From Eledone cirrhosa (lineage: Eukaryota): a DNA stretch of 64,000 nt. A program made the translations under genes and the position numbers. Positions 24,522-27,749 of this stretch are shown piece by piece; position 1 is the first letter of the stretch, and the number at the start of each line of letters is the position of its first letter. The notes beneath the pieces are model-generated. The model ran no database searches. It saw only the letters and a program-made list of their open reading frames with translations, and was not told the origin of the DNA. The stretch covers positions 209,188,001 to 209,252,000 of the forward strand of contig OZ024742.1 in NCBI GenBank assembly GCA_964016885.1. The letters are read 5' to 3'.

Positions 24522-25750
24522 GACATAGAATATTCGAAAATATTCTGTATGTTTATAATAAACATTTTGAAGACCTAATCGCTATAGAATAGAATACGTC
24601 ACGTATTACAATTAGATTCTCGATAAAAGCAAGGGAAGTAATCTACGCGTTTCATTCTTGTTAGAAATCATCAGGACTACATATCCAGTGCTTTTATCGA
24701 GAATGACACAGCTAGAGACTTATAGAATACTTAGCTGTGTACAGGAACTGGTTTGAAAGAGCGGTTGCCGGTCCGGCAGAAATTAGAAATTGGAATAAAT
24801 GCTCTGAAATAGCGATATATATGTGAATATAGACATAGAATATTCGAAAATATTCTGTATGTTTATAATAAACATTTTGAAGACCTAATCGCTATAGAAT
24901 AGAATACGTCACGTATTACAATTAGATTCTCGATAAAAGCAAGGGAAGTAATCTACGCGTTTCATTCTTGTTAGAAATCATCAGGACTACATATCCAGTG
25001 CTTTTATCGAGAATGACACAGCTAGAGACTTATAGAATACTTAGCTGTGTACAGGAACTGGTTTGAAAGAGCGGTTGCCGGTCCGGCAGAAATTAGAAAT
25101 TGGAATAAATGCTCTGAAATAGCGATATATATGTGAATATAGACATAGAATATTCGAAAATATTCTGTATGTTTATAATAAACATTTTGAAGACCTAATC
25201 GCTATAGAATAGAATACGTCACGTATTACAATTAGATTCTCGATAAAAGCAAGGGAAGTAATCTACGCGTTTCATTCTTGTTAGAAATCATCAGGACTAC
25301 ATATCCAGTGCTTTTATCGAGAATGACACAGCTAGAGACTTATAGAATACTTAGCTGTGTACAGGAACTGGTTTGAAAGAGCGGTTGCCGGTCCGGCAGA
25401 AATTAGAAATTGGAATAAATGCTCTGAAATAGCGATATATATGTGAATATAGACATAGAATATTCGAAAATATTCTGTATGTTTATAATAAACATTTTGA
25501 AGACCTAATCGCTATAGAATAGAATACGTCACGTATTACAATTAGATTCTCGATAAAAGCAAGGGAAGTAATCTACGCGTTTCATTCTTGTTAGAAATCA
25601 TCAGGACTACATATCCAGTGCTTTTATCGAGAATGACACAGCTAGAGACTTATAGAATACTTAGCTGTGTACAGGAACTGGTTTGAAAGAGCGGTTGCCG
25701 GTCCGGCAGAAATTAGAAATTGGAATAAATGCTCTGAAATAGCGATATAT
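24521..25750 (-). repeat. Retrozyme-like 310-bp tandem array, left block (~4 units)
   Basis: agacatagaa at 24521, 24831, 25141, 25451; minus-strand HHRs at 24638, 24948, 25258, 25568. Confidence 0.95.
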
Positions 25751-27749
25751 CTAATTGTAATACGTGACGTATTCTATTCTATAGCGATTAGGTCTTCAAA
25801 ATGTTTATTATAAACATACAGAATATTTTCGAATATTCTATGTCTATATTCACATATATATCGCTATTTCAGAGCATTTATTCCAATTTCTAATTTCTGC
25901 CGGACCGGCAACCGCTCTTTCAAACCAGTTCCTGTACACAGCTAAGTATTCTATAAGTCTCTAGCTGTGTCATTCTCGATAAAAGCACTGGATATGTAGT
26001 CCTGATGATTTCTAACAAGAATGAAACGCGTAGATTACTTCCCTTGCTTTTATCGAGAATCTAATTGTAATACGTGACGTATTCTATTCTATAGCGATTA
26101 GGTCTTCAAAATGTTTATTATAAACATACAGAATATTTTCGAATATTCTATGTCTATATTCACATATATATCGCTATTTCAGAGCATTTATTCCAATTTC
26201 TAATTTCTGCCGGACCGGCAACCGCTCTTTCAAACCAGTTCCTGTACACAGCTAAGTATTCTATAAGTCTCTAGCTGTGTCATTCTCGATAAAAGCACTG
26301 GATATGTAGTCCTGATGATTTCTAACAAGAATGAAACGCGTAGATTACTTCCCTTGCTTTTATCGAGAATCTAATTGTAATACGTGACGTATTCTATTCT
26401 ATAGCGATTAGGTCTTCAAAATGTTTATTATAAACATACAGAATATTTTCGAATATTCTATGTCTATATTCACATATATATCGCTATTTCAGAGCATTTA
26501 TTCCAATTTCTAATTTCTGCCGGACCGGCAACCGCTCTTTCAAACCAGTTCCTGTACACAGCTAAGTATTCTATAAGTCTCTAGCTGTGTCATTCTCGAT
26601 AAAAGCACTGGATATGTAGTCCTGATGATTTCTAACAAGAATGAAACGCGTAGATTACTTCCCTTGCTTTTATCGAGAATCTAATTGTAATACGTGACGT
26701 ATTCTATTCTATAGCGATTAGGTCTTCAAAATGTTTATTATAAACATACAGAATATTTTCGAATATTCTATGTCTATATTCACATATATATCGCTATTTC
26801 AGAGCATTTATTCCAATTTCTAATTTCTGCCGGACCGGCAACCGCTCTTTCAAACCAGTTCCTGTACACAGCTAAGTATTCTATAAGTCTCTAGCTGTGT
26901 CATTCTCGATAAAAGCACTGGATATGTAGTCCTGATGATTTCTAACAAGAATGAAACGCGTAGATTACTTCCCTTGCTTTTATCGAGAATCTAATTGTAA
27001 TACGTGACGTATTCTATTCTATAGCGATTAGGTCTTCAAAATGTTTATTATAAACATACAGAATATTTTCGAATATTCTATGTCTATATTCACATATATA
27101 TCGCTATTTCAGAGCATTTATTCCAATTTCTAATTTCTGCCGGACCGGCAACCGCTCTTTCAAACCAGTTCCTGTACACAGCTAAGTATTCTATAAGTCT
27201 CTAGCTGTGTCATTCTCGATAAAAGCACTGGATATGTAGTCCTGATGATTTCTAACAAGAATGAAACGCGTAGATTACTTCCCTTGCTTTTATCGAGAAT
27301 CTAATTGTAATACGTGACGTATTCTATTCTATAGCGATTAGGTCTTCAAAATGTTTATTATAAACATACAGAATATTTTCGAATATTCTATGTCTATATT
27401 CACATATATATCGCTATTTCAGAGCATTTATTCCAATTTCTAATTTCTGCCGGACCGGCAACCGCTCTTTCAAACCAGTTCCTGTACACAGCTAAGTATT
27501 CTATAAGTCTCTAGCTGTGTCATTCTCGATAAAAGCACTGGATATGTAGTCCTGATGATTTCTAACAAGAATGAAACGCGTAGATTACTTCCCTTGCTTT
27601 TATCGAGAATCTAATTGTAATACGTGACGTATTCTATTCTATAGCGATTAGGTCTTCAAAATGTTTATTATAAACATACAGAATATTTTCGAATATTCTA
27701 TGTCTATATTCACATATATATCGCTATTTCAGAGCATTTATTCCAATTT
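25751..27749 (+). repeat. Retrozyme-like 310-bp tandem array, right block (~6.4 units, opposite orientation)
   Basis: ctaattgtaa at 25751, 26061, 26371, 26681, 26991, 27301, 27611; ends at ttccaattt then (TA)n. Confidence 0.95.
25996..26038 (+). ncRNA. Minimal type-I hammerhead ribozyme (repeated every 310 bp)
   Basis: gtagtc CTGATGA t-ttct-aaca-agaa-t GAAA cgcg TA gattac; stem I extended by attctcgataaaagca/tgcttttatcgagaat. Confidence 0.88.

Follow-up and report, generated by a model that had tools for sequence, protein, structure and literature searches.

We analyzed a 64,000-nt stretch of the Eledone cirrhosa genome (assembly GCA_964016885.1, contig OZ024742.1, positions 209,188,001 to 209,252,000; hereafter, the window), in which two perfect arrays of a 310-nt unit meet head-to-head at 25749-25750 with a 2-nt AT overlap. 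Our findings show that this polarity switch is the rule of a whole repeat family and the normal shape of its insertions, which pair one short (S) outer end with one long (L) outer end. On its sequence features, the repeat is a retrozyme lacking long terminal repeats (non-LTR), predicted to be self-cutting, that bears the two-ended signature of Penelope-like elements (PLEs). It is likely that the seam of a single two-armed insertion arose when a PLE-type reverse transcriptase (RT)/endonuclease primed two cDNAs, 35 nt apart, on one RNA, and this template was probably a circle.

At the window locus, the polarity switch of the original prediction is real: 3.98 units face left and 6.45 face right, both outer ends run into (TA)n, and the microhomology of about 2 nt at the joint is the AT at 25749-25750. 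Units are numbered from 26033, the base after the predicted ribozyme cut. No unit at this locus carries a variant, the 31-nt junction sequence occurs once in the 3.0-Gb assembly, and a target-site duplication, which in metazoan non-LTR retrozymes exceeds 4 bp when present, would be masked by the (TA)n flanks. The two arms do begin at different registers of the unit (134 and 27), as had been pointed out, but inner registers proved random across the family, and the information lies in the outer ends. The proposal that read-through would give double-stranded RNA (dsRNA) with ribozymes on both strands has the right geometry, with a perfect inverted match of 1229 bp between the arms, but a single read-through RNA would have sense ribozymes in one arm only.

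A 43-nt stretch of the hammerhead has 4177 exact matches in the assembly. Behind the first 100 of these places lie 12 insertions, picked regardless of their ends, of which 10 are two-armed, one is one-armed, and one is cut by a gap. Their outer ends fall at two sites of the unit only, about 130 (S) and about 165-167 (L), with the S end reading as 139 where the unit's own TA run fuses with the flank. Across the whole assembly, the end patterns followed by TA number 1253 for S and 1246 for L. Among the 192 ends listed on C1 up to 217.8 Mb, all 63 pairs of divergent neighbors within 20 kb combine S with L, with no S+S and no L+L pair.

We fetched 132 stretches, 120 of them chosen by end patterns. 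Two-armed, head-to-head insertions account for 112 of the 128 informative ones, that of the window included, although selection by end pattern may inflate this fraction and builds TA into the selected end. The pairing test is unaffected by this selection because S+S and L+L pairs were equally findable, and all 107 insertions with both ends visible are S+L (54 SL and 53 LS), with an S-to-L offset of 35 nt. Tabulating the registers and flanks of other copies, as had been suggested, yielded an inverted, TA-associated family. All 39 valid ends off the four pattern positions run into TA, and 209 of 221 ends were TA-rich before curation. During curation we dropped L159 (a false two-armed call on a diverged sister copy), L068 (a duplicate of L069 beside a gap), L099 (53 nt, below the 60-nt cut-off), and L034 and L163 (no view of the 5' side); L095 was moved to the two-armed class, and five two-armed loci with one end outside the stretch were left out of the 107. 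The remaining 16 copies are one-armed (12 S and 4 L), and their 5' side mostly adjoins the microsatellite; L057, counted among them, has an inverted L arm of 11 nt. Ends 30-40 nt apart with an inverted arm, together with a (TA)n target bias, are what is expected of PLE-mobilised elements. At L035, L117/L118, L129, and L225, separate retrozyme or PLE insertions stack in one microsatellite tract, sometimes tail to tail.

Real inverted joints outside the assembly are also supported. In contigs of run X1, two head-to-head joints occur with different registers, near 230/109 and 226/79, alongside the unit itself, which reaches a very high depth, and nine S ends that run into TA. More broadly, 20 runs from 16 studies contain at least half of the unit's words, and no RNA run is among the matches listed. 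Runs X4 and X5, which carry other organism labels, each include one 340-nt contig (the unit plus 30) that is identical to the unit at a depth of 10-12; these contigs could be circles, collapsed tandems, relatives, or cross-contamination.

The seam between the arms was characterized in 109 simple joints, with three complex ones left out. Of these, 55 overlap, 17 are blunt, and 37 contain inserts, several of which are local re-copies of the unit. Overlaps of at least 2 nt are found in 40 of the 72 insert-free joints, whereas simulations of blunt joining give 18% (p 1.6e-12). Between arms, the register difference is uniform (Kolmogorov-Smirnov p 0.58), and 10 of 109 joints lie within 10 nt, where 7.4 are expected; 5' ends lean mildly toward the first half of the unit (chi-square p 0.044). 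The predicted cut site is crossed at least twice by 175 of 214 arms, with a maximum of 45, and 5' ends do not pile up there (5 of 218 within 5 nt, against 7.7 expected), so the template was not a cut linear monomer. Similarly, the L arm is the longer one in 58 loci and the S arm in 49, which argues that neither arm is regularly copied from the other. At L037:3099-3370, 272 nt of unrelated sequence separate the arms; this insert has no other match in the fetched DNA and is possibly another RNA or DNA captured during joining.

Further insight into the template comes from unit haplotypes. In the 92 loci where both arms hold at least one unit, we distinguished 35 haplotypes, and both arms of a locus carry one unit haplotype, with non-reference variants fixed across all units of both arms at 72 of the 92. 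Twenty variants, at 19 loci, were found at a single sampled locus, and two of them were checked assembly-wide. The variant 88A>T spans 11+13 units at its sampled locus, and the arms of every other holder have at most 9 units. Likewise, 216A>G is fixed across 9+9 units at its sampled locus; elsewhere it is confined to single units (four) and a patchy array (one), and the assembly contains no second homogeneous array of it. Both variants fit a model in which one mutated unit, in the form of a circle, was amplified, provided that no donor is absent from the assembly. A few loci retain variation along their arms. In L115, with arms of 3.0 and 17.7 units, the haplotype changes past the outer two units of both arms, and in L082 and L096 a single-unit variant is common to both arms at an equal distance from the outer ends; the arms of L096 measure 4.8 and 3.4 units. 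In all, nine variant sites are shared in register (five in L115 and two trivial ones in L072), compared with 88 unshared. Together, the shared haplotypes and, at three loci, the alignment of minority variants by distance from the outer ends favor a pair of primings on one RNA over fold-back of a single cDNA.

The assignment to retrozymes relies on the unit itself, which is tandem, within the 150-450 nt range, low in GC, non-coding, and furnished with a hammerhead motif in every copy, while near-identical units and about 1250 ends of each type reflect a dispersed, recently mobile family. No open reading frame (ORF) of at least 120 aa lies inside the array, and the repeat falls outside the definition of an autonomous PLE, which has an RT plus GIY-YIG ORF. 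Plus-strand hammerhead cores recur at 26002 + 310n (six of them) and minus-strand cores lie at 25604, 25294, 24984, and 24674. The core together with stems I-III was found in 10 of 10 full copies, stem III being palindromic and very short, with a fold z of -3.9. From the hammerhead consensus, we take the predicted cut to fall after 26032. In sister repeats about 70% alike, the core is kept and the stems are altered, and sequence conservation among sister retrozymes covers unit positions 60-170.

The same end rule extends to coding elements. The window contains a member of a young PLE family (Table 1), for which many of the 150 scored hits reach 98-99% identity and have long open frames; its two 3' ends are separated by 35 nt, and both lie in TA. 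Among 42 stretches fetched, six of which were picked for two ORF hits, 7 of 7 two-armed loci are S+L. At the places listed on C1, inspected by eye, 8 of 9 exact S ends are accompanied by a divergent L end no more than 3.1 kb away, and the 100 listed L ends include no divergent L-L pair spaced 10 kb or less. An older sister retrozyme behaves in the same way: among 30 loci picked by body, 9 of 9 two-armed copies with intact ends are S+L, five more have a truncated end, and no PLE ORF is joined to any copy.

These observations are consistent with the following sequence of events. The array would be transcribed, the hammerhead would cut the transcript into monomers, and a host ligase would close these into circles, steps already published for retrozymes of other animals. 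A PLE protein, probably acting as a dimer, would bind around unit positions 100-170 and cut both (TA)n strands, after which one 3' end would prime at about 130 and the other at about 165. Both polymerases would then circle the template for 0.2 to 45 units, and the two cDNA 3' ends would be joined by microhomology-type end joining, leaving a head-to-head seam at any register; failure of one priming would give a one-armed copy (16 of 128). The original idea that both strands of a cut (TA)n target primed synthesis on a circular or multimeric template is thus supported by outer ends that are fixed and paired in 107 of 107 cases. A smaller share of insertions seems to derive from linear multimers that were left uncut. 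We are evenly divided on the broader proposal that PLE integration is an obligate two-headed reaction, in which one ribonucleoprotein would hold two RTs 35 nt apart on one RNA, each primed from one end of the (TA)n break. If this were true, both RTs would roll round a small ribozyme-made circle and write satellite-like palindromic arrays in a single step, and one mechanism would account for the tail and inverted repeats of PLEs as well as for retrozyme arrays.

Among the alternatives, double priming by a PLE enzyme on an uncut linear multimeric donor transcript, with no role for circles, is unlikely, although it deserves the most attention of the four. The haplotype switch shared by both arms of L115 and the in-register variants of L082 and L096 speak for it, as does the report that ribozyme mutants have no effect on PLE insertion in vitro (PMC11167929). 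However, in-register sharing is limited to one block and two single-unit variants, while 88 sites are unshared, and transcripts of arrays as diverged as those of today would transmit many more. New variants fixed over 18-24 units would, moreover, require a one-unit bottleneck followed by re-amplification, and no donor with equally long arms was found for either 88A>T or 216A>G.

Self-priming, in which a single cDNA folds and is copied back, is improbable and largely refuted. It has been proposed from palindromes at the inverted junctions of PLEs (PMC3846280), and it would account for microhomology and templated inserts at the joints; a 129-nt inverted host flank at the 5' end of the window PLE, described below, also shows that fold-back across (TA)n can occur. 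The fold-back offered in the original prediction nevertheless fails here, as register differences are uniform with no excess of near-palindromic ones, either arm may be the longer, and a copied arm would have no reason to stop at the other fixed site. L115 and L096 contradict it as well because fold-back would mirror variants from the center, whereas theirs align from the outer ends; L082, with arms equal in length, is uninformative on this point. In L1 twin priming, two target ends prime on one RNA and produce a 5'-to-5' joint with microhomology. A LINE-type (long interspersed nuclear element) reaction of this kind, driven by a non-PLE RT, would match the head-to-head geometry of L1 5' inversions, and an RTE/L1-like element with a LINE-like RT is present in the window at about 5250-8170. 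We nonetheless hold it to be very improbable: L1 uses a variable second site, produces arms with hardly any overlap, and leaves poly(A) at one end, whereas both retrozyme start sites are fixed 35 nt apart, the arms overlap in full while running round a repeat, no poly(A) is seen, and coding PLEs obey the identical rule. Least credible of all is an assembly chimera or a later inversion inside a satellite array. None of the 13 pieces listed, out of 312 from sequencing runs, spans the window junction, and long palindromes are known to be hard to assemble (PMC8557442). Neither event, however, could yield 107 of 107 S+L insertions in TA, locus-specific haplotypes common to both arms, and the same rule in other families, and the joints and S ends of run X1 are independent of the assembly.

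Several points weigh against priming of two cDNAs on a ribozyme-made circle by a PLE enzyme. All counts derive from one assembly and mostly from one contig. Neither 88A>T (5 places) nor 216A>G (6 places) is strictly private, donor arrays could be missing from this assembly, and L115, L082, and L096 fit a single linear multimer, read by both polymerases from a common 3' region, rather than a monomer circle. A minority variant is shared out of register in L083 and L035, and the longest arrays (L089, L037, L055, and L035) carry repeated variants, suggesting tandem expansion afterwards. In the hammerhead, stem II has a U-U at its base and stem III is 2 bp long, and the match to Rfam Hammerhead_HH9 (19.2 bits, E 0.025) is below the cut-off of 52, with 0 hits at gathering score in the 64-kb window; 8 of 9 Xenopus retrozymes failed to cleave in vitro (10.64898/2026.07.22.740005). 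Regarding the partner enzyme, the young PLE of the window is a candidate helper, and mobilization by a local PLE, as originally suggested, holds as far as the PLE-type signature is concerned, but no sequence link to the window PLE was found. The unit has no homology to the young PLE in the 42 stretches beyond neighboring retrozyme insertions, nor to the regions downstream of 19 other GIY-YIG hits in the fetched DNA, a comparison that covers a minority of the PLE families of this genome. By core pattern, the candidate PLE contains no hammerhead, and it shares only tail length and target with the repeat; tails of 30-40 nt are general in PLEs (PMC8557442). A likeness between the 35-nt tails of retrozyme and young PLE, judged by eye, was too weak to count.

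Retrozymes, the inverted arms and tails of PLEs, and a PLE-retrozyme link are already published. Animal retrozymes are expressed as circles, circular RNA has been proposed as their template and PLEs as their helpers, and this mobilization has so far rested on co-occurrence and pseudo-LTR (pLTR) similarity (PMC7229834; 10.64898/2026.07.22.740005). Like metazoan non-LTR retrozymes, the repeat forms dispersed multimers of a tandem, non-coding unit that is close to 300 nt long and low in GC, with every unit bearing a type I hammerhead. Those elements are described there as direct tandems, whereas here the arrays are two-armed with fixed, paired ends. In PMC7229834, the words "inverted," "orientation," and "microsatellite" occur 0 times, and no treatment of array ends or polarity was found in 10.64898/2026.07.22.740005; the supplements of both, not covered here, may show such structures. 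Neither two-armed retrozyme arrays nor a strict short/long pairing turned up in our literature searches, with subscription papers and supplements not covered. Our analysis adds in-register variant sharing and an assembly-wide check of two fixed variants, and it extends the 35-nt S/L rule to a young coding PLE present in this window.

The closest parallels are found among PLEs. Endonuclease-containing (EN+) PLEs have an inverted 5'-truncated copy, a 30-40 nt tail at one end, and a (TA)n preference (PMC8557442; PMC3846280), and thus share head-to-head arms, a one-end tail, and a microsatellite target with the retrozyme; no target-site duplication is visible in either, although in the retrozyme the (TA)n flanks would hide one. 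Unlike them, the retrozyme lacks an ORF, both of its arms are multi-unit tandems, and in two-armed copies a tailed end is strictly matched by a tail-less one rather than being optional; its junction registers argue against the self-priming reading published for PLEs (PMC3846280). The purified Anolis Poseidon PLE protein, a predicted dimer, cuts and extends both strands of AT-rich DNA and starts at two internal RNA sites that bound the tail (PMC11167929). These internal start sites, the cutting and extension of both strands, the dimer, and the AT-rich target match the reaction proposed here. In that study, no strand difference in start sites was seen and the sites were not tied to the two arms of one insertion, whereas the genomic record presented here ties them. 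The origin of tandem and inverted PLE insertions and of the PLE tail has been named as an open problem (PMC8557442), and about 1250 young insertions with unit-level haplotypes provide a genomic record that links two start sites to two arms, against fold-back. In addition, a 310-nt substrate and two exact start sites are now named for an in vitro assay, and the arrays point to a one-step route to kilobase perfect palindromes, which are possible sources of dsRNA and instability.

Table 1. Coordinates of the retrozyme array, its flanks, and related elements in the window.
Feature	Positions	Strand	Description
Left arm	24517..25750	-	3.98 identical 310-nt units, from 134 (5') to 127 (3') of the unit; short (S) end
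Right arm	25749..27749	+	6.45 identical units, from 27 (5') to 167 (3') of the unit; long (L) end
Head-to-head junction	25749..25750	.	2-nt microhomology
35-nt "tail" (unit positions 131-165), bounded by the S and L end sites	27713..27747	+	Outer end of right arm only
Left TA-rich microsatellite flank (target)	24439..24516 (TA tract to 24521)	.
Right TA-rich microsatellite flank (target)	27750..28205 (TA tract from 27749)	.
Type I hammerhead (predicted), one unit	25972..26060	+	Long closing stem; core 26002-26008 + 26023-26026; repeats every 310 nt
5'-truncated copy of young coding PLE (RT + CX4CXXC + GIY-YIG)	1894..5051	-	S-type end; RT and GIY-YIG by Pfam; candidate helper
Head-to-head PLE-like copy of another family, in (TA)n	8683..13118	.	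Right end ~80 nt longer than left; GIY-YIG-like motif by eye
Older sister retrozyme, ~70% alike over the unit	58358..58937	.	Head-to-head, L end left, S end right, (TA)n; hammerhead at 58774

The CX4CXXC linker of the young PLE has been assigned to Neptune and Nematis (PMC8557442). The ORF for this candidate protein is 758 aa long. Among the S ends of this family (L164-L205), 15 of 24 have additional (CT)n, up to about 35 copies, located where the element meets the TA flank, a pattern suggestive of reiterative copying at the start site in the manner of telomerase. Next to the 5' end of the window copy (5053-5379), 129 nt of host flank belonging to an older LINE-like element recur as an inverted duplicate on the far side of the (TA)n at 5184-5250; it looks as though the second target end had folded back on the TA run and copied its own flank.

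The inverted arms noted for other PLE copies of the window were confirmed. PLE and other palindromic copies are head-to-head at 8683-13118, which has no Pfam hit, and at 50046-51029, 54551-54732, and 59502-59924; such elements have unequal ends, with offsets of about 80, 66, and 40 nt. Short non-coding head-to-head palindromes in (TA)n, also with unequal ends, are located at 42764-43671, 58977-59199, 59502-59924, and 54551-54732 and likely represent more PLE-dependent families. Further hammerhead-like cores occur in other repeat families of the window (35800, 44600, 47006, 47452, 24179, and 61652), several of them at PLE ends. Finally, a repeat family with an unrelated body, present at L057, L074, L092, L209, and L213, has a hammerhead core and stem II almost identical to those of the retrozyme.
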